Below are positions 9,504-64,000 of a DNA stretch of 64,000 nucleotides, in pieces. How positions within the stretch are numbered: the first letter of the stretch is position 1; every line of letters starts with the position of its first letter. The notes under the pieces are model-generated. The model had not been told where the DNA came from and did not search any database. It saw nothing but the letters and a program-made list of their open reading frames with translations. Location: contig JBGVCF010000009.1 in assembly GCA_045226315.1 (NCBI GenBank), forward strand, positions 16,684-80,683. Reading direction: 5' to 3'. Made by a program: the position numbers and the translations under genes. This DNA is from Candidatus Cryptobacteroides sp. (GTDB lineage Bacteria; Bacteroidota; Bacteroidia; Bacteroidales; UBA932).

Positions 9504-10118
9504 ATGGATGCAAAACTGAAAGAAACCATTCTGAACCCCATTTTCAAGGGGAATCCCATTACCGTCCTGGTGCTGGGTATCTGCTCTTCGCTGGCGGTTA
9601 CCGTCACCTTGAAGGGTGCCTTGGTGATGACGCTTTCCGTGATTGTGGTCTGCGGCATTTCCAGCCTCATCCTCTCGCTCCTGAGAAACACCATTCCCGG
9701 CCGCGTACGTATCATCGTCCAGCTGGTTGTGGTGGCCATGATGGTAATCCTGGTGGACCAGGTCCTCAAGAGTTTCGAAGCCACCTACGCCATTGATAAA
9801 CAGCTGTCCGTCTATATCGGCCTTATCATTACCAACTGTATCGTGATGGGCCGCATCGAGGCTTTCGCCCTGGGCAATAAGCCCTGGCCCAGCTTCCTGG
9901 ACGGTGTGGCCAACGGCGCCGGCTACGGCCTCATCCTCCTCATCGTTGCCTTCTTCCGCGAGCTTCTTGGCAGCGGAACCCTGTTCGGCATCGACATCCT
10001 GAACCGCTTTGGTTATGTTCCCAACAACCTGGTGATCCTGCCGCCCTTCGCCCTCATCCTCCTGGGATGCATCGTGTGGGTGCAGCGCTCTGTCCAGAAA
10101 GACTTGCAAGAAAAATAA
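9504..10118 (+). CDS. nqrD: Na+-NQR subunit D
   Basis: NPITVLVLGICSSLAVT and GLIITNCIVMGRIEAFA. Confidence 0.95.
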   Translation: MDAKLKETILNPIFKGNPITVLVLGICSSLAVTVTLKGALVMTLSVIVVCGISSLILSLLRNTIPGRVRIIVQLVVVAMMVILVDQVLKSFEATYAIDKQLSVYIGLIITNCIVMGRIEAFALGNKPWPSFLDGVANGAGYGLILLIVAFFRELLGSGTLFGIDILNRFGYVPNNLVILPPFALILLGCIVWVQRSVQKDLQEK

Positions 10119-10130
10119 CCCCGACGCCTT

Positions 10131-10727
10131 ATGGAATATCTTAGCTTATTCGTCAAGTCCATCTTTGTGGACAACATGATCTTCGCTTACTTCCTGGGAA
10201 TGTGCTCATTCCTGGCAGTATCGAAGAATGTGAAGACAGCTGCTGGCCTGGGTGTCGCGGTCATCTTCGTGTTGCTGGTCACTCTCCCCATCAACTACCT
10301 GCTCAACACCTATGTGCTGGCACCCGACGCCCTGATCGAAGGAGTGGATCTGAGCTTCCTCAGCTTCATCGTCTTCATCGCCGTCATCGCCGCCATCGTG
10401 CAGATCGTAGAAATGGTGGTGGAGAAATTCTCTCCCGAACTCTATTCCGCGCTGGGTATCTTCCTGCCGCTCATCGCCGTGAACTGCGCCATCCTGGGCG
10501 GTTCCCTGTTCATGCAGCAGAAAGACTTCCTGAACATCGGCGAGGCAACCGTATATGCCTTGGGTTCCGGTATCGGCTGGTTCCTGGCTATCGTGGCCCT
10601 GGCCGCCATCCGCGAGAAGATGAGCTACTCCAACGTCCCGGCCGCACTGAAAGGCCTGGGTATCACCTTTATCACCGTGGGTCTGATGGGCCTTGCCTTC
10701 ATGACCTTCATGGGCATTGCACTGTAA
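10131..10727 (+). CDS. nqrE: Na+-NQR subunit E
   Basis: [24 protein letters not shown] and LKGLGITFI. Confidence 0.95.
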
Positions 10728-10740
10728 GGAGGACGAAACT

Positions 10741-12015
10741 ATGGGTAATACAATTCTTTTCTCCATCATCGTCATTACAGTAGTGACCCTGATTCTGGTG
10801 GCCCTCCTGCTGGTCATCAAGGCCGCCGTCACCCCGTCCGGCACCGTCAAGATCAACATCAACAACGGTACCAAGGAACTGGAAGTGACTCCCGGCAGCG
10901 ACGTTATGCACACCCTGGCCGATCACGGCATCTTCCTCCCCTCCGCCTGCGGCGGTAAGGCCAACTGCGGCCAGTGCAAACTGCAGGTGCTGGAAGGCGG
11001 CGGAACCATCCTTCCCACTGAAACGGGCTTCTTCTCCCGCAAGCAGATCAAGGAAGGCTGGCGCCTGGGCTGCCAGGTAAAGGTGAAGGACAACATCCAG
11101 ATTGCCGTTCCGGAGAGCGCCCTCAGCGTGAAGAAGCTGGAGTGCGAGGTTATCTCCAACGAGAATGTGGCCACCTTCATCAAGGAATTCACCGTGAAAC
11201 TTCCGGAAGGCGAGCACATCGACTTCAAGTCCGGCGAGTACATCCAGATCGACATTCCCGAATATGAGGCCGACTTCTCCGACATGGGCGTGGCCGATAT
11301 CTACAAGGGCGACTGGGACAAGTACGGCATCACCGGCCTGAAGTTCAAGAACACCGTGCCCACCATCCGCGCTTATTCCATGGCTTCGTATCCGGCCGAG
11401 AAAGACCTCATCAAGCTGAACGTGCGTATCGCAACCCCTCCGTTCGACCGTACCCAGCCTAAGGGCGTCTTCAAGTTCGTGCCGGGCGTGCCTCCGGGCA
11501 TTGCTTCCACCTATGTGTTCTCCCGTAAGCCGGGCGACAAAGTGTGGATCAGCGGCCCTTACGGTGAGTTCCTCCTGCCCAAGGACGATCCCGACAGCCA
11601 GGAATATGTGTTCGTGGGCGGCGGCGCCGGTATGGCTCCCCTCCGCAGCCACATCATGCACCTGTTCAAGACCCTCAAGACCAAGAAGGAAGTGCACTTC
11701 TTCTATGGCGCCCGCGCCCTGGTGGAAGCCTTCTATCTGGAGGATTTCGCCGAAATCGAGAAAGATTTCCCGAACTTCCACTTCCATCTGGCCCTGGACC
11801 GGCCGGACCCGGCCGCCGATGCCGCCGGTGTGAAGTACACCCCCGGTTTCGTGCACAACGTGATGAACGAGACCTACCTCAAGGACCACGAGGCCCCCGA
11901 GGATATCAAGTACTTCATGTGCGGTCCGCCCATGATGACCAAGTGCGTCTGCGACCTTCTGGACAGCCTGGGCGTTGCCCCTGAGAGCATCCTCTTCGAC
12001 AACTTCGGCGGTTAG
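10741..12015 (+). CDS. nqrF: Na+-NQR subunit F
   Basis: 2Fe-2S motif SACGGKANCGQC, RLGCQVKV, RAYSMASYP, GGGAGMAPLRS and MCGPPMM. Confidence 0.95.
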   Translation: MGNTILFSIIVITVVTLILVALLLVIKAAVTPSGTVKININNGTKELEVTPGSDVMHTLADHGIFLPSACGGKANCGQCKLQVLEGGGTILPTETGFFSRKQIKEGWRLGCQVKVKDNIQIAVPESALSVKKLECEVISNENVATFIKEFTVKLPEGEHIDFKSGEYIQIDIPEYEADFSDMGVADIYKGDWDKYGITGLKFKNTVPTIRAYSMASYPAEKDLIKLNVRIATPPFDRTQPKGVFKFVPGVPPGIASTYVFSRKPGDKVWISGPYGEFLLPKDDPDSQEYVFVGGGAGMAPLRSHIMHLFKTLKTKKEVHFFYGARALVEAFYLEDFAEIEKDFPNFHFHLALDRPDPAADAAGVKYTPGFVHNVMNETYLKDHEAPEDIKYFMCGPPMMTKCVCDLLDSLGVAPESILFDNFGG

Positions 12016-55172: not shown

Positions 55173-55835
55173 TTATTTCTTAAACCATGCAAGACTCTGC
55201 TGGCAGAGGGCTGAGATGGAGGCCCAGTTGCCGGAGGCGATCACGTCCTTGGGGAAGAGCTTGGAGCCCATGCCCACGGCGGTGACGCCGCTTTTGGCCC
55301 AGGCAGTAAGGTTCTCCTCGGTGGGTTCCACGGCGCCGGTGCACATGATCATTGCCCAGGGCAGCGGGCCCAGGATGTTCTTCACGAAGGAAGGACCGCC
55401 CACATTGCCAGCCGGGAACACCTTCACCAGGTCGCAGCCCAGTTCCTGTGCCTTCACAATTTCCGTCACGGTGCCGCAGCCGGGGCTGTAGGGCACGCCA
55501 CGCCGGTTGGCCAGTTTCACCACTTCCTCCACCATACAGGGAGATACCAGGAAATCGGCCCCCATCTGCAGGTAGATGGCGGCGGTGGGCGCATCCAGGA
55601 TGGTGCCGGCACCCAGGGCCATCTCCGGGCATTCGGCCCGTACGAAAGCCATCACTTCCTTGAACACTTCGTTGGCGCCGTCGCCGCGGTTGGTGAACTC
55701 GAACGCACGGATACCGCCATCGTAGCAGGCCTTCACCACCTTCTTGGTAATGTCTGCATCCTTGTTGTAGAATACCGGCACGATTCCGGTCTTCCGAATG
55801 ATACTGATGGTATCGATTTTATTGAACTTTGCCAT
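55173..55835 (-). CDS. eda: KDPG/KHG aldolase
   Basis: FEFTNRG, GAGTILD, PGCGTVTE, VKVFPA and MCTGAV. Confidence 0.92.
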   Translation of the reverse strand: MAKFNKIDTISIIRKTGIVPVFYNKDADITKKVVKACYDGGIRAFEFTNRGDGANEVFKEVMAFVRAECPEMALGAGTILDAPTAAIYLQMGADFLVSPCMVEEVVKLANRRGVPYSPGCGTVTEIVKAQELGCDLVKVFPAGNVGGPSFVKNILGPLPWAMIMCTGAVEPTEENLTAWAKSGVTAVGMGSKLFPKDVIASGNWASISALCQQSLAWFKK

Positions 55836-55839
55836 ATTC

Positions 55840-56877
55840 TTATCTGCTTACACGGCCGGAACCGCCGCCTTTGATGAGACCTTCTACTTCGGCAACCGTT
55901 ACGCGGTTGTAATCGCCCAGGATGGTGTGCTTGAGGCAGGATGCCGCCGCAGCGAACTCGATGGCTTCCTGGTCGGTTTCATAGGCCAGCAGGCCGTACA
56001 GGAGGCCGCCCATGAAGGAATCGCCGCCACCTACGCGGTCCACGATATGGGTGATGTCGTAGCGCTTGCTCTGCCAAAGGGTCTTGCCGTCGTACAGCAC
56101 GCCGCCCCAGGTATTGTGGTTGGCGTTGATGGAACCACGCAGGGTCACGGCCACCTTCTTGCAACGCGGGAACTTGGCCATAAGCTGTTCTCCCACGCTG
56201 ATGAAGATACGCTGGTCAATCTCACCGCCGGTCTTTTCGGCGTCGAAGCCTTCGGGCTTGATGCCGAACTCTTTCTCGGCGTCTTCCTCGTTGCCAAGGA
56301 TCAGGTCACAGCCTTCCACCAGGGCGGGCATCACTTCGGCCGCCGTCTTGCCGTATTTCCACAGCTTCTTGCGGTAATTGAGGTCGCAGGACACCTTCAC
56401 GCCCATCTCGTTGGCCACCTTGATGGCTTCCAGGCAGGCATCGGCCGCACCCTGGCTCAAAGCGGGCGTAATGCCGGTCCAGTGGAACCAATCGGCCCCC
56501 TGCAGCACCTTGCGCCAGTCTACCATGCCGGGCAGGATTTCGGAGATGGCCGAATGGGCGCGGTCGTACACCACCTTGGAGCCGCGCGCCACGGCGCCGG
56601 TTTCCAGGTAATAGATGCCCACGCGGTCGCCGCCATAGACCACGCCGTCCAGGTTCACGCCCAGGCCTTTCAGCTCGGCGGTACACATGTCGGCGATGTC
56701 GTTCTTGGGAAGACGGGTAACAAAATGAGCGTCAATGCCATAGTTAGCAAGCGAGACAGCCACGTTGGCCTCGCCGCCACCGAAAGTGGCATCGAACTGA
56801 TGGGCCTGCGAAAAACGCTGATAGCCCGGGGTGGAAAGGCGAAGCATCACTTCGCCGAAGGTTACTACTTTTGCCAT
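55840..56877 (-). CDS. kdgK: 2-keto-3-deoxygluconate kinase (PfkB family)
   Basis: TFGEVMLRLS, GGGEANVA, SCDLNYRKKLW and DRVGGGDSF. Confidence 0.92.
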   Translation of the reverse strand: MAKVVTFGEVMLRLSTPGYQRFSQAHQFDATFGGGEANVAVSLANYGIDAHFVTRLPKNDIADMCTAELKGLGVNLDGVVYGGDRVGIYYLETGAVARGSKVVYDRAHSAISEILPGMVDWRKVLQGADWFHWTGITPALSQGAADACLEAIKVANEMGVKVSCDLNYRKKLWKYGKTAAEVMPALVEGCDLILGNEEDAEKEFGIKPEGFDAEKTGGEIDQRIFISVGEQLMAKFPRCKKVAVTLRGSINANHNTWGGVLYDGKTLWQSKRYDITHIVDRVGGGDSFMGGLLYGLLAYETDQEAIEFAAAASCLKHTILGDYNRVTVAEVEGLIKGGGSGRVSR

Positions 56878-56895: not shown

Positions 56896-57813
56896 TTATC
56901 TCATTTCAGTGTAAGGAATCTTGTCCATGTCACCATAGTCCAGGTTCTCACCGGCCATGCCCCAGATGAACATATAGTTGGAGGTACCTGCAGCGGCGTG
57001 GATGCTCCATTCGGGGCTCATGATGGCCTGCTCGTTGGCCAGCCAGACGACGCGCTCCTGCTGGGGTTCACCCATGAGGTGGCAGATCATGTTGCCTTCT
57101 GTAACGTTGAAGTAGAAGTAGGCCTCGATGCGGCGGGCATGGGTGTGGGCCGGCATGGTGTTCCAGACGGAACCGGGTTTGAGCTCGGTAAGGCCCATCT
57201 GCAACTGGCAGGGTCCCTCTTCCAGTACATTGTTCACAATGAGCTGGTTAATCACGCGGTCATTGGAGTCTTCCATCTTGCCGGCGGCGAAAGAATTGGC
57301 CTTCAATGAGCCCTTACGGCCATCGATGGTAATGAGCTGCGTCTTGTAGGCCTTGTGAGCGGTAGCGCTGTTCAGATAGAACTTGGCGGGATGGGCCGCG
57401 TCCTTGCTGCGGAAGGTCACTTTCTCGTTGCCACGGCCCACGTACAGGGCCTCCTTGAATTTCAGGATATACTCCTTCCCGTTTACCGTCACAATGCCGG
57501 GGCCGCCGATGTTGATCACACCCAGTTCACGGCTGAACAGGAAATAAGGGGCCTTCAGCGGATCGATGGTTTCCAGCGTCAATTCCTTGGTGGCAGGGAA
57601 AGCGCCGCCGAAGATAAAGCGGTCATAGAGGGAATAAGTGAGGCGGATTTCATCGGCCACCATCACCTCCGGCATCATGAAACGGGAGCGGAGGGTTTCG
57701 GTATCGTAGCCTTTCACATCGGCAGGATGGCAGGCCGTCTGAATGGAATACTTGGTTTGTGCGCTCATAGCGATGGTGCAAAATACAATAGCTAAGCTAA
57801 TTAACTTTTTCAT
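56896..57813 (-). CDS. kduI: 4-deoxy-L-threo-5-hexosulose-uronate ketol-isomerase with signal-peptide-like N-terminus
   Basis: [44 protein letters not shown] and WGMAGEN. Confidence 0.92.
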
Positions 57814-59188
57814 AGGATGCTTTGATAATTCTTCTGCGGTTAAAGATGGCCAGAACAGTGGTGCCCGCCACAAGGATGGCACTGCCCACCAGTTTGAAGT
57901 CGTGAACCAGGTGGAAGATGACCCAGGAGAAGAGGCTGGAAGCGAAGTCCAGCGCTCCGCCCTGGAAACCCTCCGGGATGGCTACGGCGGCATCACCGGT
58001 ACGGGCATACACGTCCTGCGCCGCCTGGGTGAAGTACGGTGCAAGGTCGGTCACGAAGTACAGGCCCACGGTAAGGGCTACCAGGCCGACGAGGAAGGTC
58101 TTCACCACATTCCCTTTGGTAACGGGCAAAACGGCCGGGAATACATAGAACATACCGGCCAGCGAAGCCAGCGGCAGGAATTCATTGCCGGGCAGCACCA
58201 CCGCCAGCACCAGCGTCACCGGAATGAGCAGCAGCGAAACCACCAGGGTGGTGGGATGGCCGATGACCAGTGCCGGGCTCATGCCGATATTGATACCGGC
58301 CGAGTTCTTGAACTTTCTGGAAACCAGTTCCTTGGTAGCTTCTGCAATGGGCTTGAGGCCTTCGATGAACAGGCCGGTGATGCGCGGGATAAGCTCCATC
58401 ACGGCACCCATCTTGATGCCCAGACCCAAGATGGCGGGGATGTGGTCCACAATCTCAGACCATGAAGGATAACTGAGACAGCCGATACCTATGCCCACGA
58501 TGACACCCAGGAAGAGAGGCTCTCCCAGCAGGCCGAATTTCTTCTTCAGTCCCTCCGCATCGATGTCCAGTTTGTTGAAACCGGGAATCTTGTCCAGGCA
58601 CCAGTTGATGCCTTCGGCAAAGGGGACGAATCCCTGGACAAAAGGCTGCGGAATAGAGATGCTGTCCATGTCCTTGTAGTAGGCCTGGAACTTTTTGGTG
58701 GTGAGGTCGGCCATCACCAGGGTGATGATAAAGCAGATGATAGCGGCAAAGAAGCCGTACCAGATGCTGTCTGTGGCAAAATAAACCACCGCACCGATAA
58801 AAGCATAGTGCCAGTAGTTCCACAGGTCTATGTTGATGGTATTGGTGGCCTTCACCAGCAGGAGGACAATATTGATGGCCAGACAGACGGGGATGATAAA
58901 GGCCCCCACCGTGGTATTATAGGCCACGGAAGCAGCTGCAGGCCATCCCATATCGAAGATGCCCAGCTGGAGATTGTATATCTCCGTTACCGACTTGAGC
59001 GGACCGCCCAGCGACGAGGTAAGCAGGGCCGTCACCACGCTCAGGCCCACGAAACCCACGCCCACCAGCAAGCCGCTCTTAAGTGCCTTCCCCGGCTTGA
59101 TGCCGATACAGATACCCAGGATAAAGAACAAAATGGGCATCATTACAGCGGCACCCAGGCCGATGATATAACTGAAAACCTGTTCCAT
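57797..59188 (-). CDS. PTS IIC, galactitol (GatC) family, orphan
   Basis: [29 protein letters not shown] and [12 protein letters not shown]. Confidence 0.85.
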
Positions 59189-59988
59189 TATTTAGGCTGT
59201 TTACCAATATAGGCCAGAATACCGCCATCTACATAGAGGATGTGGCCGTTCACGGCGTCAGAAGCCTTGGAGGCCAGGAAAACGGCCGGTCCGGCGAGTT
59301 CGTCGGGATCCAGCCAACGGCCTGCGGGCGTCTTGGCACAGATGAAACTGTCGAAGGGATGGCGGCTGCCATCGGCCTGCTTCTCCCGCAGCGGAGCGGT
59401 TTGGGGCGTAGCAATATAACCGGGGCCAATGGCGTTGCACTGGATATTGTATTCGCCGTACTCGGAGCAAATGTTGCGTGTGAGCATCTTGAGACCACCC
59501 TTGGCGGCGGCATAGGCACTCACGGTCTCGCGGCCCAGTTCGCTCATCATGGAGCAGATATTGATGATCTTGCCTTCCCGGCGCTCCATCATCTCGGGGA
59601 CCACGGCGGCAGCGCAGATATACGGGCCCACCAGGTCTACGTCAATCACCTGCTGGAATTCGGCCCGGGTCATCTCATGCATCGGGATGCGCTTGATGAT
59701 ACCGGCGTTGTTCACCAGGATATCGATCTGGCCGATCTCCCGGTGAATCCTGTCCACCAATTCCTTTACAGCCACCTCATCCGTGACATTGCACACATAG
59801 CCGTGCACATTGGTGATTCCGGCGGCTTTGTAAGCCTCCAGGCCCTTTTCCATGGATGCCTGGTTGGACGTATTGAAGATAATGTTCTCCACGCCGGCCT
59901 CCACGAAAGCCTTGGCAATGGCGAAGCCGATACCATAAGCCGCACCGGTAACCCATGCATTCTTACCTTTTAAAGAGAAAATATCCAT
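59188..59988 (-). CDS. kduD: SDR oxidoreductase, KduD/gluconate 5-dehydrogenase type
   Basis: TGAAYGIG, NNAGI, SMMSELG, YAAAKGG and IGPGYIATPQT. Confidence 0.8.
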   Translation of the reverse strand: MDIFSLKGKNAWVTGAAYGIGFAIAKAFVEAGVENIIFNTSNQASMEKGLEAYKAAGITNVHGYVCNVTDEVAVKELVDRIHREIGQIDILVNNAGIIKRIPMHEMTRAEFQQVIDVDLVGPYICAAAVVPEMMERREGKIINICSMMSELGRETVSAYAAAKGGLKMLTRNICSEYGEYNIQCNAIGPGYIATPQTAPLREKQADGSRHPFDSFICAKTPAGRWLDPDELAGPAVFLASKASDAVNGHILYVDGGILAYIGKQPK

Positions 59989-59998
59989 ATGCTGATAC

Positions 59999-61663
59999 TT
60001 AATTAATAGTCAAATCCTGTATTTCCAGCCATCCTGCATCGTTCTTACGGGCAGGACGATTGCAATAAAATCCAAATTTAGCACCGATCCATAACTCAGG
60101 ACGGGCCATGAAACTTTGCGGAACGCGCATCCATTTTTTGCCGCCGTCCACACTGTAACTGAACTGACACTGCGGCTGCGGAACATTTCCAGCACGCTCA
60201 AGCGGTTTCACCTCCAGACGCACACGCACCGTGGCGCGTCTGTAAGAAGGATACTTGACCAAGGGCACATTCTGTGATTCATGCCGATGGTCGATCTCTA
60301 CGGCCTCCCACGGAACGGCGCACAGAGGAAGAATCGCTTCTGACGCGCCCTCGGAGGCTTTTTCACAAAGAACATATTGCAGTTGGACACCTTCAGGAGT
60401 ATCCTGTAACTGCAAGGCAGCATAGCTGTTGCCGGTAACTGCAAAGCCGGCCGTTTCTCCATGCTGTTCCAGTTGCGGATTGGGCATGAAAGTCAGGATA
60501 GCCTCTACGGTGAATGCTTCGGCCGGGAACTTCTGTGAGAGCAGATTAGGGCAGTTCCAAAGTCCGCTGGCCCCATGCTCCACACTATATAGCCTGAATC
60601 CTCCGTCCGGCAAAGCCTGATGCCAATAGGGACTGGGAACAGCCGGATACTGCCAGGCCAAATCCAAACCATAAGGGCCGATCCCCTGCCCCGTTTCGGG
60701 GCCTTTTTTCGTAGTCACTGGCGCACGCCAAGCAGCCACAGGCAGCCCTATGCCATCGCCGTCGGGGTCTTCGCCGATTATCGGCCAGCCATCGGCCTGC
60801 CAAACCATGGGCTGCAGATGGACAATCCGGCCATAGGCGCCTTTGTCCTGGAAATGCAGGAACCAGTCCTCCCCGTGGGGGGTCGAAACCCATGCACCCT
60901 GATGCGGCCCGTTGATGGTCCCGGACGCCCAGGCCATTACCACGCGTTCCTCATAGGGCCCGGCCAGGGATTTGCCCCTTAAAACACTTTGCCAGCCGGT
61001 TGCTACGCCACCAGCCGGAGCAAAAATATAGTACCACTCCCCTCTCTTGTACACCTTGGGCCCCTCGATGGTGGGCTGGGTCAGGTGTCCGTCATAAATA
61101 ATCTGCGAAGGACCTGTCACGGCCGATGCATCGGCATTGAGCGGGGCCAGGAAGAGAACGCTCTTGAGTCCGGCCCTGGAGCCTGCGCAGCCATGGATCA
61201 GCCACACGCTTCCATCCTGGTCCCAGAAAGGACAGGGGTCGATGAAGCCTTTTGCCTCAACCACCCAGACGGGTGCCGTCCACGGTCCACGGGGATCCTG
61301 GCTGCGTACCATAAAGATTCCCCTGTCGGGGTCTCCGCAAAAAATGTAAAACCAGCCGTCGTGATAGCGGATGGAAGGGGCCCAAACCCCTTTCCCGTGC
61401 GCCACCGGCTGATCAAAGGCAGGATAATCCTGCAAAGCATAGGCGATCAAGGTCCAGTGGACCAGATCTGTAGAATGCAGGATGGGCAGACCCGGCATAC
61501 AGTTGAAGGAGGAGGCCGTCATATAATAATCCTCCCCTACCCGGCATACATCCGGGTCGCTGTAGTCGGAATGAAGCACCGGATTGGTATAGCGCTGCCC
61601 TGCTGCCGCCCACGAAAGGCAGCAGAGCAGGACAACGCTCAAACCTATCCGAATGCGGTTCAT
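59999..61663 (-). CDS. GH43 glycoside hydrolase with C-terminal beta-sandwich
   Basis: Signal peptide AAG/Q, YSDPDV, WAPS, IDPCPF, EGPK and HQG. Confidence 0.88.
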   Translation of the reverse strand: MNRIRIGLSVVLLCCLSWAAAGQRYTNPVLHSDYSDPDVCRVGEDYYMTASSFNCMPGLPILHSTDLVHWTLIAYALQDYPAFDQPVAHGKGVWAPSIRYHDGWFYIFCGDPDRGIFMVRSQDPRGPWTAPVWVVEAKGFIDPCPFWDQDGSVWLIHGCAGSRAGLKSVLFLAPLNADASAVTGPSQIIYDGHLTQPTIEGPKVYKRGEWYYIFAPAGGVATGWQSVLRGKSLAGPYEERVVMAWASGTINGPHQGAWVSTPHGEDWFLHFQDKGAYGRIVHLQPMVWQADGWPIIGEDPDGDGIGLPVAAWRAPVTTKKGPETGQGIGPYGLDLAWQYPAVPSPYWHQALPDGGFRLYSVEHGASGLWNCPNLLSQKFPAEAFTVEAILTFMPNPQLEQHGETAGFAVTGNSYAALQLQDTPEGVQLQYVLCEKASEGASEAILPLCAVPWEAVEIDHRHESQNVPLVKYPSYRRATVRVRLEVKPLERAGNVPQPQCQFSYSVDGGKKWMRVPQSFMARPELWIGAKFGFYCNRPARKNDAGWLEIQDLTIN

Positions 61664-61664
61664 A

Positions 61665-63119
61665 CTAGACCTCTACGGGTTTATACTTGGGAACCAGGGC
61701 CTTCATGATGGTCCAACCGATCAGGTAGGCCAGGCCGCAGAAGCAGAACATGATGAAGTAACCGGCCGGCTTGCCTTCGAAACCCATGAAGTGGAAGGCG
61801 GCACCCTGCCCTTGGGCATAGGTGAAGAGGTTACCGGCCACTTTCTGGATAATCATGGAGCCGATACCGCCCGCCATGGCACCGATGCCCGTGACGGAAG
61901 CGATGGTGCTCTTGGGGAACATGTCACCCACGGTAGAGAAGATATTGGCGCTCCAGGCCTGGTGTCCCGCACCGGCGATACCGATGAGGATGGCCGGCCA
62001 CCAGGGGCTGTAGGCACCCAGAGGCTGGGCGGCCAGGGCCACCAGCGGGAAGAAGGCGAAGATGAGCATGGCCAGCATACGGCCGCTGTAAGGGTTCATT
62101 CCCTTCTTCTCCACGAAGAGCTTGGGCAGATAACCGCCGAACAGGGAAATCACCGTCACAATGGCGTAGAGGGTGAAAATGAGGCCCTGACCCAGCGGGG
62201 AGCTGGCCGGCGCATTGAACTGGTCCTGGAAATAGGCCGGAGCCCAGAACAGGAAGAACCACCACACACCGTCGGTAAGGAATTTACCCACGATGAAGCT
62301 CCAGGTCTGTTTGAACTTGAAGCACTGCATGAACGGAATGGATTTCTCCTCTTCAGCTGCTTTCGCAGCGGCGGCAGCTTCTTCTTCGGCATCGTCCTGG
62401 TGAATGTATTCCAGTTCGGCCTGGTTCACGTGCTTGCTCTTTTCAGGCTTATCGTACATGTACTGCCAGAAGAACATCCACAGGAAGCCCAGGGCACCAA
62501 TGATGATGAAAGCCATCTCCCAGCCGTAATGCTTGGCAAGCGGCGGGATCAGAAGCGGAGCGGCCAGGGCGCCCACGGAGGCACCGGCATTGAAGATGGA
62601 CGTAGCAAAAGCGCGGTCCTTTTTGGGGAAATATTCGGCCGTGGTCTTGATGGCGGCCGGGAAGTTGCCGCTCTCACCCAGCGCCAGGATACCCCGGCAC
62701 AACAGGAAGAGGTAAACACTGATCGTTGAAATGGTCAGCGCCAGTTCAGAACCAGCTTCCACAGCCCGCAGGGCCTCCATAGACTCAAGTTCGTCAATGA
62801 ACCAGGTGGAGGCAATGCCGCATGCGGCATGCATCACGGCACCCCCAGACCATACGCCGATGGCGATCAGGTAACCCTTCTTGGTGCCCATCCAGTCCAC
62901 GAACTTGCCGGCGAACAGACAGGCAATGGCGTAGAAGATGGAGAACAGGGACGTGATGGTACCGTAGTGGGCATCGGTCCAGTGGAATTCGGGAGCGATG
63001 AACTCCTTATAGGTAAGGGACAGTACCTGGCGGTCCAGGTAGTTCACAGTGGTGGCCACAAACAGCAGGGTGCAAATCCACCACCGCCAGTTGGTCATTA
63101 ATTTCTTCTGAGTGGACAT
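61665..63119 (-). CDS. MFS hexuronate transporter (ExuT-like)
   Basis: NYLDRQVLS, GESGNFPAA, FNAGASVG and HQAWSANIF. Confidence 0.88.
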   Translation of the reverse strand: MSTQKKLMTNWRWWICTLLFVATTVNYLDRQVLSLTYKEFIAPEFHWTDAHYGTITSLFSIFYAIACLFAGKFVDWMGTKKGYLIAIGVWSGGAVMHAACGIASTWFIDELESMEALRAVEAGSELALTISTISVYLFLLCRGILALGESGNFPAAIKTTAEYFPKKDRAFATSIFNAGASVGALAAPLLIPPLAKHYGWEMAFIIIGALGFLWMFFWQYMYDKPEKSKHVNQAELEYIHQDDAEEEAAAAAKAAEEEKSIPFMQCFKFKQTWSFIVGKFLTDGVWWFFLFWAPAYFQDQFNAPASSPLGQGLIFTLYAIVTVISLFGGYLPKLFVEKKGMNPYSGRMLAMLIFAFFPLVALAAQPLGAYSPWWPAILIGIAGAGHQAWSANIFSTVGDMFPKSTIASVTGIGAMAGGIGSMIIQKVAGNLFTYAQGQGAAFHFMGFEGKPAGYFIMFCFCGLAYLIGWTIMKALVPKYKPVEV

Positions 63120-63124
63120 AAGTC

Positions 63125-64000
63125 TTAGATAATGGATTTAACAGCTTCGCGCATGCCTTTTTCCTGAATCAGGGCCAGGTCCTTGATGAGGAGGTCGGTG
63201 AGACCGGGAATGGCATTGAGGTCTTCGCCCCAGATGAAGTTATCGGCCAGGACGCCCTTGGCAACAGCGGTTACGTCGCCGGTGGCCCAAAGGTCCTTCA
63301 GAAGTTGCATGATCTTCGGGTCGTCGTTGGGAACGATTTCGTCGTCGCCGCGCTTGCCGCCCTTATAGTAGGTGCAGATACCGGCCAGGCCCAGGACAAG
63401 GCCCTGCGGGAGTTCGCCCTTACGCTCCAGATAGGTCTTGAGGCCGGGCAGGTCGCGGGTCTTGAACTTGGGGAAGGAGTTGAGCATGATGCTGGTGACG
63501 AAGTGCTTCACAAACGGGTTGCGGAAGCGCTCCAGCACATCGCCGGCAAACTGCAGGAGTTCCTCCTTGGGCAGGTTCAGGGTGGGCAGGAGCTCATCGT
63601 ACATGACCTTCTTCACAAACTGGCCGATTTCAGGGTCTTCGCAGCATTCCTTAACGGTATTCAGGCCGGAAAGATAACCCACGGGGCTCAGGACGGTGTG
63701 GGGGCCATTCAGGAGCGTTACTTTACGCTCGTGGTAAGGAGCCTCGGACGGGACGAAGAGCACGTGCAGACCGGCTTGGTCGGCCGGGAATTCGGCGGCC
63801 ACTTCCTTCGGGGCTTCAATTACCCACAGGTGGAAGATTTCGGCCTTGTCCAGCAGATGGTCGTCGTAGCCGGCGCGCTCGCACAGCTGGGCGGCGGTAT
63901 CGCGCGGATAACCGGGCACAATGCGGTCCACCAGCGTGCTGTATACGCCGCAGGCGGTCTCGAACCACTCGCTGAATTCTGCGCCCAGGTTCCACAGCTG
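63125..64000 (-). CDS. uxaB: Tagaturonate reductase (altronate oxidoreductase), 5' end beyond the window
   Basis: STLVDRIVPGYP, WVIE, RKVTLLNGPHT, RFRNPFVKH and SIMLNS. Confidence 0.9.
   Translation of the reverse strand, partial: QLWNLGAEFSEWFETACGVYSTLVDRIVPGYPRDTAAQLCERAGYDDHLLDKAEIFHLWVIEAPKEVAAEFPADQAGLHVLFVPSEAPYHERKVTLLNGPHTVLSPVGYLSGLNTVKECCEDPEIGQFVKKVMYDELLPTLNLPKEELLQFAGDVLERFRNPFVKHFVTSIMLNSFPKFKTRDLPGLKTYLERKGELPQGLVLGLAGICTYYKGGKRGDDEIVPNDDPKIMQLLKDLWATGDVTAVAKGVLADNFIWGEDLNAIPGLTDLLIKDLALIQEKGMREAVKSII

Follow-up and report, generated by a model that had tools for sequence, protein, structure and literature searches.

A GatC-family enzyme IIC without a phosphotransferase system, paired with an exported KduI, as a candidate keto-acid carrier in Bacteroidales

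The 64,000-nucleotide stretch of Candidatus Cryptobacteroides sp. DNA analysed here (the window; C9:16684-80683, from a genome of 2.31 Mb and 99.2% completeness) encodes a homologue of GatC, an enzyme IIC (EIIC or IIC) permease of the phosphotransferase system (PTS), and, directly downstream of it, the isomerase KduI with a predicted export signal. It is proposed that the PTS-uncoupled IIC and the exported KduI probably form a two-gene module, in which the IIC serves as the inner-membrane carrier for 2,5-diketo-3-deoxygluconate (DKII). Independence of the IIC from a PTS is very likely, and a role in carrying a uronate-derived keto-acid is likely; that this keto-acid is specifically DKII is judged somewhat better than an even prospect. 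We infer the transported species, the direction of transport and the energy coupling. The features on which the proposal turns are the following.

57797..59188, minus strand: GatC-family PTS EIIC homologue, 463 aa (PF03611; GatC structure 9U82)
56896..57813, minus strand: KduI (NF002091, 376 bits against a cut-off of 250; PDB 9KD0, 548 bits)
57760..57813, minus strand: Sec (signal peptidase I) signal peptide of KduI, predicted cleavage before Q, with its features kept in 78/78 IIC-linked KduI

The IIC matches the EIIC-GAT family PF03611 at 3.9e-76 (257 bits) over profile positions 1-386 of 394, and its nearest solved structure is GatC of Leminorella grimontii (LgGatC; 9U82, 248 bits over residues 3-411). 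Against the galactitol-specific model TIGR00827 it scores 359.9 bits, under the cut-off of 542.2. PF03611 is the only Pfam family matched, so the protein has no homology to the KdgT family, and the whole genome holds one EIIC-GAT gene.

According to the original prediction, neither the operon nor the window encodes IIA, IIB, HPr or EI. Profile searches and tblastn extend this absence to the whole genome, where the search that it had recommended for ptsI, ptsH and gatA/B likewise found none. No EI scored above the cut-off genome-wide (TIGR01417), the sole match being a 910-aa frame that we take to be pyruvate phosphate dikinase. The genome search for HPr (PF00381) gave two matches at chance level, ~15 bits, and those for EIIA_2 (PF00359) and PTS_IIB (PF02302) gave no match at E<=0.1. 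When IIB, IIA, HPr and EI of the closest PTS-linked relatives served as tblastn queries, neither the genome nor 80 related loci gave a match. Hidden PTS components were ruled out by these tblastn queries together with the four whole-genome family searches. Because EI, HPr, EIIA and EIIB are all missing from a genome of this completeness, the IIC very probably cannot act as a PTS permease.

In a homology search against 1.84 billion cluster representatives, the IIC falls over its full length in one separate cluster at the 50%-identity level (P0123, 72% identity), after which identity drops to 40% or below. Genomic contexts were examined for five of the next-nearest relatives outside this clade, and PTS_IIB lies immediately upstream in four of them, P0137 being uninformative; relatives named as carrying PTS_IIB upstream, at 39-44% identity, include P0139, P0141, P0143, P0144 and P0148. 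One PTS_IIB-linked relative outside the clade also has IIA, HPr and EI nearby. As judged from sequence, the Bacteroidales IICs are a compact lineage derived from genuine PTS permeases. A clue to the substrate was sought in the nearest relatives outside the clade and was not obtained, as these lie in ordinary PTS operons of polyol or sugar-alcohol type without kdu genes.

The IIC is tied most closely to KduI, which lies directly downstream on the same strand in 78 of the 80 related loci, the contigs of the remaining two ending earlier. The same arrangement occurs in 4 genomes of other families. The positions of the short-chain dehydrogenase (SDR), KdgK, Eda and major facilitator superfamily (MFS) genes vary among these loci, and the conserved core is IIC plus KduI. 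Across the 80 loci, no transporter other than the IIC accompanies the exported KduI without exception. In the window, the SDR stop and the IIC start share the junction TAATG, a 1-nt overlap at 59188; the KduI ATG at 57813 gives a 17-nt overlap with the IIC, whose stop occupies 57797-57799. The full-length IIC and both overlaps are as originally described.

Characterised KduI proteins are cytoplasmic and have no signal peptide, and the IIC-linked KduI departs from them in this respect. All 78 have an N-terminal extension of 18-22 residues with an MKK or MKR n-region and a hydrophobic core, which ends in Ala before Gln (A/Q) in 77; KduI from the four genomes of other families (L012-L015) likewise carry signal peptides. 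The extensions diverge widely in sequence, yet their character is kept and the mature proteins are 65-100% identical, which argues for a functional signal peptide. In the same genome, further exported proteins also have signal peptides ending in A/Q. The pattern fits the Q-rule of Bacteroidetes signal peptidase I. In PDB entry 9KD0, a KduI ~83% identical to the mature protein of the window, the chain starts at the predicted mature Q, which suggests that the depositors removed the signal peptide; a literature search found no paper for 9KCZ, 9KD0, 9KD1 or 9KD2. From these features, we infer that KduI is periplasmic.

The metal ligands of KduI, H-x-H-x4-E...H, do not vary among 77 exported and 18 cytoplasmic sequences, and the exported enzyme is therefore predicted to be active. 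In the window's genome it is the sole KduI. A start-codon artefact arising from an internal ATG at 57768 was ruled out as the source of the signal peptide by comparison of 82 IIC-linked with 18 IIC-less KduI N-termini, so that the export of KduI presumed in the original prediction is supported.

Three further observations concern the same protein. The in-frame ATG itself, at 57766-57768 and three codons before the cleavage site (...IAMSA/Q), is kept in a rumen subclade and not elsewhere. A Cys at mature residue 9 (QTAC[HN]P; window ~57733-57735) is invariant in the 77-member exported clade, whereas the same position in cytoplasmic KduI is Ser, Ala or Thr; the Cys may be an adaptation to the periplasm. 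In Bacteroides rodentium JCM 16496 (L111), the KduI behind the IIC aligns in two pieces without a readable N-terminus and the MFS gene is also split, which could reflect frameshifts, sequencing errors or pseudogenes.

The association was also profiled in an even sample of 301 genomes across Bacteroidales. KduI was found in 80 of these genomes. The IIC is patchy, occurring in five, and two other genomes of the window's genus lack it. A signal-bearing KduI adjoins the IIC in 5/5 IIC-positive genomes, and in four (G000, G252, G161 and G020) it is the only KduI. Eighteen IIC-less KduI, including all those with unusually long frames, were inspected and have a Met 2-6 residues before the conserved Y-E-x-R-Y..HP.D.K.YDT; in the others the open frame from stop to stop spans 278-298 codons, into which a signal peptide would not fit. 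The profile of IIC against signal-bearing KduI that the original prediction had suggested thus contains no signal-bearing KduI among the IIC-less ones. IIC-less genomes, including that of a congener of the window's organism, have the gene order kduI-SDR-DUF4861.

In a KduI tree, 77 of the 78 exported proteins form one clade. The exception, the IIC-linked KduI of L014 (genome G216; 10030-10938), nests in the cytoplasmic clade with support 1.0, yet it carries a 22-aa signal peptide, and once mature it begins with QKNNYEVRYA, which is similar to the cytoplasmic start MKTNYELRYA. It looks as though the signal peptide was gained independently, or as though the 5' end was retained after gene replacement. 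That a cytoplasmic-type KduI behind the IIC carries its own signal peptide points to a functional requirement beyond shared ancestry. G216 has a second KduI without a signal peptide.

DUF4861 also appears beside the IIC itself. In 19 of the 80 related loci (for example L056:6822-7997, L090:6648-7925 and L101:6759-7994), the SDR and IIC genes are separated by one for a DUF4861 lipoprotein (PF16153, 260-360 bits). The window's genome has none. The product is a second extracytoplasmic protein tied to kdu genes.

The GatC proteins of E. coli and L. grimontii (TC 4.A.5; PDB 9U82, 9U84, 9U8E and 9U8H) belong to the same Pfam family as the window IIC, and an elevator-type fold is expected for it. The cavity residues of LgGatC are known, and the cavity has been described as negatively charged (preprint 10.1101/2025.04.02.646771). 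In an alignment of 84 clade members with 104 other GatC-like proteins, W83, N125, W127, H128 and both pivot glycines (LgGatC numbering) are kept in the clade. Asp296 in hairpin 3 (HP3) of LgGatC is Asp in 91 of the 104 other proteins and Ser in 84/84 clade members (S304 in the window), and HP2 is remodelled from H-G-T-S to Q-P-F-C/V. Two features occur in the clade alone, N91 close to HP1 and an insertion ahead of HP4; around LgGatC D399 this insertion makes the alignment unreliable, and no reading is drawn there. Loss of the cavity carboxylate would fit an anionic substrate, as expected when a neutral polyol gives way to a carboxylic acid. Apart from these substitutions, the window IIC differs from GatC in having no GatA, GatB, EI or HPr in its genome and in standing among genes of uronate catabolism, not galactitol metabolism. 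Xylose uptake by E. coli GatC has also been reported (preprint 10.1101/2025.04.02.646771), and we regard this as a precedent for transport of a non-canonical substrate.

The genes around the pair run on the minus strand in the transcription order UxaB, ExuT-like MFS, GH43, SDR, EIIC-GAT, KduI, KdgK-like PfkB kinase and Eda. The other members of the run are listed here.

63125..64000, minus strand: UxaB tagaturonate reductase, 3' part (NF002969, 318.6 bits on the fragment)
61665..63119, minus strand: ExuT-like MFS hexuronate transporter (PF07690, 163.6 bits; TIGR00893, 170 bits)
59999..61663, minus strand: GH43 glycoside hydrolase with a signal peptide, N-terminus MNRIRIGLSVVLLCCLSWAAAGQ (PF04616, 235 bits)
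59188..59988, minus strand: DhuD-type short-chain dehydrogenase, 266 aa, without a signal peptide (NF005488, 457 bits, above cut-off)
55840..56877, minus strand: KdgK-like PfkB kinase (PF00294, 121.6 bits; KDG kinase models also match)
55173..55835, minus strand: Eda, KDPG/KHG aldolase (NF005499, 322 bits, cut-off 275)

The uxaB gene runs beyond the end of the window, the full gene being C9:79808-81247. KdgK and a separate ExuT-like MFS had been assigned to the operon, and both are present on the same strand. The gene upstream of the IIC had been called kduD. Its product is an SDR that scores 230 and 207 bits against KduD models, both under cut-off. Its best model, NF005488, is named 'gluconate 5-dehydrogenase', and in the PDB it comes closest to 9KD1 and 3CXR, with 4Z9X, 'gluconate 5-dehydrogenase', next. 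By these matches it is assigned not as a canonical KduD but as a DhuD-type reductase, a type that is typical of kduI-dhuD clusters in Bacteroidota (PMC12838403).

A pectin polysaccharide utilisation locus (PUL) lies directly upstream on the contig. It encodes two enzymes with lipoprotein signal peptides, a GH28 and a GH105/GH88-family hydrolase, as well as UxaA and a CE8/GDSL esterase that also bears a signal peptide. A 591-aa lipoprotein, in which Pfam matches an fn3 domain only, is read from its motifs as a PL1-like pectate lyase. A putative LacI-type regulator is assigned solely from its helix-turn-helix-like N-terminus, and two open reading frames are placed as putative SusD and SusC by position only. 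Between uxaA and the putative SusD gene lies a 1723-aa lipoprotein gene (C9:84308-89479), the product of which has repeated modules that look beta-helix-like by eye. The altronate dehydratase gene uxaA, just upstream of the operon, contains an in-frame copy of a unit resembling a repetitive extragenic palindrome, at C9:82472, ~1.8 kb past the window end. The unit translates as CHSERSEES and has 44 copies in that reading frame genome-wide.

In the proposed route, the lipoprotein GH105/GH88, encoded ~20 kb upstream, would trim pectin lyase products in the periplasm and free unsaturated galacturonate, which would open to 4-deoxy-L-erythro-5-hexoseulose uronate (DHU, or DKI). The Sec-exported KduI would isomerise DHU to DKII in the periplasm, and the IIC would carry DKII over the inner membrane without phosphorylation. 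In the cytoplasm, the NAD(P)H-dependent DhuD-type SDR would reduce DKII to 2-keto-3-deoxygluconate (KDG), which KdgK would phosphorylate with ATP before Eda cleaves the product. The SDR is placed in the cytoplasm because it has no signal peptide and needs NAD(P)H. Since the sole KduI is exported in four of the sampled genomes while the reductase is cytoplasmic, DKII must, on this proposal, cross the inner membrane. Cation symport, or uniport pulled by cytoplasmic reduction and phosphorylation, would be the favoured form of energy coupling because the substrate would be an anion. The ExuT-like MFS, UxaB and UxaA would take care of saturated galacturonate. The original prediction that the IIC has been repurposed as a non-phosphorylating ketouronate carrier is supported by the sequence data on every point that could be addressed in silico, namely PTS absence, the phylogenetic profile and the signal peptides of the linked KduI.

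Rumen metatranscriptome contigs match the window with zero or few mismatches and span three gene junctions: that of IIC and KduI (X3 record 3, 57407-58412, 0 mismatches), that of SDR and IIC (X4 record 14 and X7 record 31) and that of KduI and KdgK (X3 record 1). In Bacteroides thetaiotaomicron, BT4106 (KduI) and BT4107 (EIIC) are co-induced >=10-fold on homogalacturonan, rhamnogalacturonan I and rhamnogalacturonan II (PMC3243724, Table S1). They are also induced on three further glycans, the identity of which is ambiguous because 13 cells stand against a 15-column header (PMC3243724, Table S1); with the assignment of these three columns ambiguous, induction on glycosaminoglycans (GAGs) is not firmly claimed.

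The IIC lineage is present in at least 557 species-level genomes. Carriers include Phocaeicola vulgatus ATCC 8482, P. plebeius DSM 17135, P. coprophilus, P. sartorii and several Bacteroides species, as well as many rumen metagenome-assembled genomes (MAGs), among them Candidatus Cryptobacteroides; the window matches an uncultured Bacteroidales MAG. The IIC is 65-100% identical across several families. Three loci assigned to Christensenella sp., Treponemataceae and Firmicutes CAG:460 (L089, L095 and L096) carry an IIC that is 76-78% identical, with a Bacteroidales-type SDR, DUF4861 and KduI arrangement. For these, contaminated bins are a likelier cause than transfer.

Zafar and Saier found a single GatC homologue (TC 4.A.5.1.4) in five of seven Bacteroides strains, reasoned that no PTS mechanism is possible and suggested a secondary carrier (PMC6281302). 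Ravcheev et al. placed BT4105 (hexT), BT4106 (kduI2) and BT4107 ('sgcC') in a predicted KdgR regulon (PMC3878776, supplement). BT4107 is likewise a single IIC in a Bacteroidales genome that lacks a PTS, and it adjoins kduI2 and the hexuronate MFS gene. The order IIC-KduI-MFS of BT4107-4105 also occurs in Bacteroides and Phocaeicola loci. The comparison with B. thetaiotaomicron comprises a PF03611 control match and the same gene order in three Bacteroides loci (L102, L109 and L115); BT4107 probably belongs to this IIC group. What distinguishes the present account from the literature on BT4107 is that the pairing with an exported KduI is invariant here and that DKII is proposed as the substrate.

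The literature search found no paper that gives a substrate for the IIC, notes export of KduI2 or proposes periplasmic isomerisation followed by IIC uptake, and no functional study of BT4106/BT4107, TC 4.A.5.1.4 or a periplasmic KduI. Within the literature searched, the original description of the route as undescribed holds for the combination of periplasmic isomerase and IIC uptake; it does not hold for the orphan carriers (PMC6281302) or the KdgR regulon (PMC3878776), both of which had already been proposed. The IIC thus belongs to an already catalogued group of orphan IICs, and what is new is its obligate partnership with an exported KduI, along with DKII as the substrate that is implied.

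Other known systems share parts of this arrangement. KdgT of Dickeya dadantii is a permease for KDG, DKI and DKII; KduI in Dickeya is cytoplasmic, and DKI arises in the cytoplasm. The job proposed for the IIC, uptake of a ketodeoxyuronate feeding KduD, KdgK and Eda, is that of KdgT, although the two protein families are unrelated. Surveys from the Saier laboratory reportedly describe SgaT/UlaA-type IIC homologues in organisms lacking a PTS, and IICs of the AG superfamily as possible secondary carriers. The SgaT/UlaA-type homologues differ from the window IIC in subfamily, and we know of no conserved enzyme partner or substrate proposed for them. Canonical KduI-KduD/DhuD clusters (types A and E, PMC12838403) encode the same two enzymatic steps with the same metal ligands. 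Unlike these, the window has the order SDR-IIC-KduI, a signal peptide on KduI and a membrane step between isomerase and reductase. The chances are about even that the IIC and the Sec-exported KduI represent a previously undescribed topology with periplasmic isomerisation and DKII crossing the membrane, in which the Asp-to-Ser change and HP2 remodelling made an anion carrier and dependence on the pair drove the independent gain of a signal peptide.

Several points weigh against the proposed route. DKII is preferred over DHU and KDG on pathway logic only, and linkage to kdu genes does not discriminate among keto-acids. B. thetaiotaomicron, in the form of kduI1 (BT3231), and G216 also keep a cytoplasmic KduI, which would need imported DHU, so not every carrier of the module depends on the route. 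The D296S change is a hint and not a diagnostic feature, and a compensating cationic cavity residue was sought in the alignment and none was identified. Zafar and Saier called the IIC genes monocistronic (PMC6281302), a label that the present data contradict, and the annotation of the IIC is unsettled; metatranscriptome contigs, for their part, can contain DNA. Some of these points would suit a PTS-independent IIC that carries DHU, KDG or all three compounds, as Dickeya KdgT does, with the exported KduI serving a separate role such as removal of the reactive aldehyde DHU. This is unlikely, as imported DHU would reach a dead end in the four of five sampled IIC-positive genomes where the only KduI is exported. 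The strict pairing of IIC with signal-bearing KduI, together with one independent gain of a signal peptide, is also hard to explain unless the substrate needs periplasmic isomerisation.

The in-frame ATG at 57768 in the window and its closest relatives could yield a minor cytoplasmic KduI isoform, the N-terminus of which, MSAQTKY..., looks ordinary for a KduI, and Ravcheev et al. labelled KduI2 cytoplasmic (PMC3878776, supplement). It is nevertheless improbable that the signal-like N-terminus is unused, that KduI starts internally and stays in the cytoplasm, and that the IIC imports DHU: a Met close to the cleavage site is absent from most relatives, the 19-22 codons upstream are open and keep their n-region, h-region and A/Q features despite sequence divergence (78/78 loci), IIC-less KduI never carry such an extension, and the 9KD0 construct starts at the mature Q. 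Group translocation through an unrecognised phosphoryl donor, such as KdgK docking in place of EIIB, would draw on the intact elevator core and pivot glycines and on the position of KdgK after KduI in the window and many relatives. It is highly improbable, given that no homologue of a PTS phosphocarrier was found and that in Phocaeicola and Bacteroides the pair is followed by the MFS gene, not KdgK. The KduD/DhuD SDR, moreover, acts on unphosphorylated DKII, as is established for these enzymes. Equally hard to credit is a decaying relic, or a sensor without a transport role in the pathway. An orphan component of a multi-protein system might invite that view, but the IIC has an intact frame, conserved aromatic and polar cavity residues and high identity across several families and at least 557 species genomes; it is also expressed in vivo, and B. 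thetaiotaomicron induces it.

When Bacteroidales degrade pectin, heparin, chondroitin and hyaluronan, unsaturated uronates are set free in the periplasm. No transporter was found in the literature search to have been assigned to the route of DHU into the cytoplasm. If the proposal is true, it would name a transporter and its substrate for a gene in at least 557 species genomes, including those of Phocaeicola vulgatus and P. plebeius and probably BT4107, and it would provide a case from nature in which a PTS EIIC serves on its own as the carrier of a defined substrate. A pathway step would have been shifted across the membrane, and metabolic models of pectin and GAG fermentation in the gut and rumen would improve. 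In Bacteroidales of the gut and rumen, the pairing of the IIC with an exported KduI suggests an unreported import route for what is released when pectin and host glycans are degraded.

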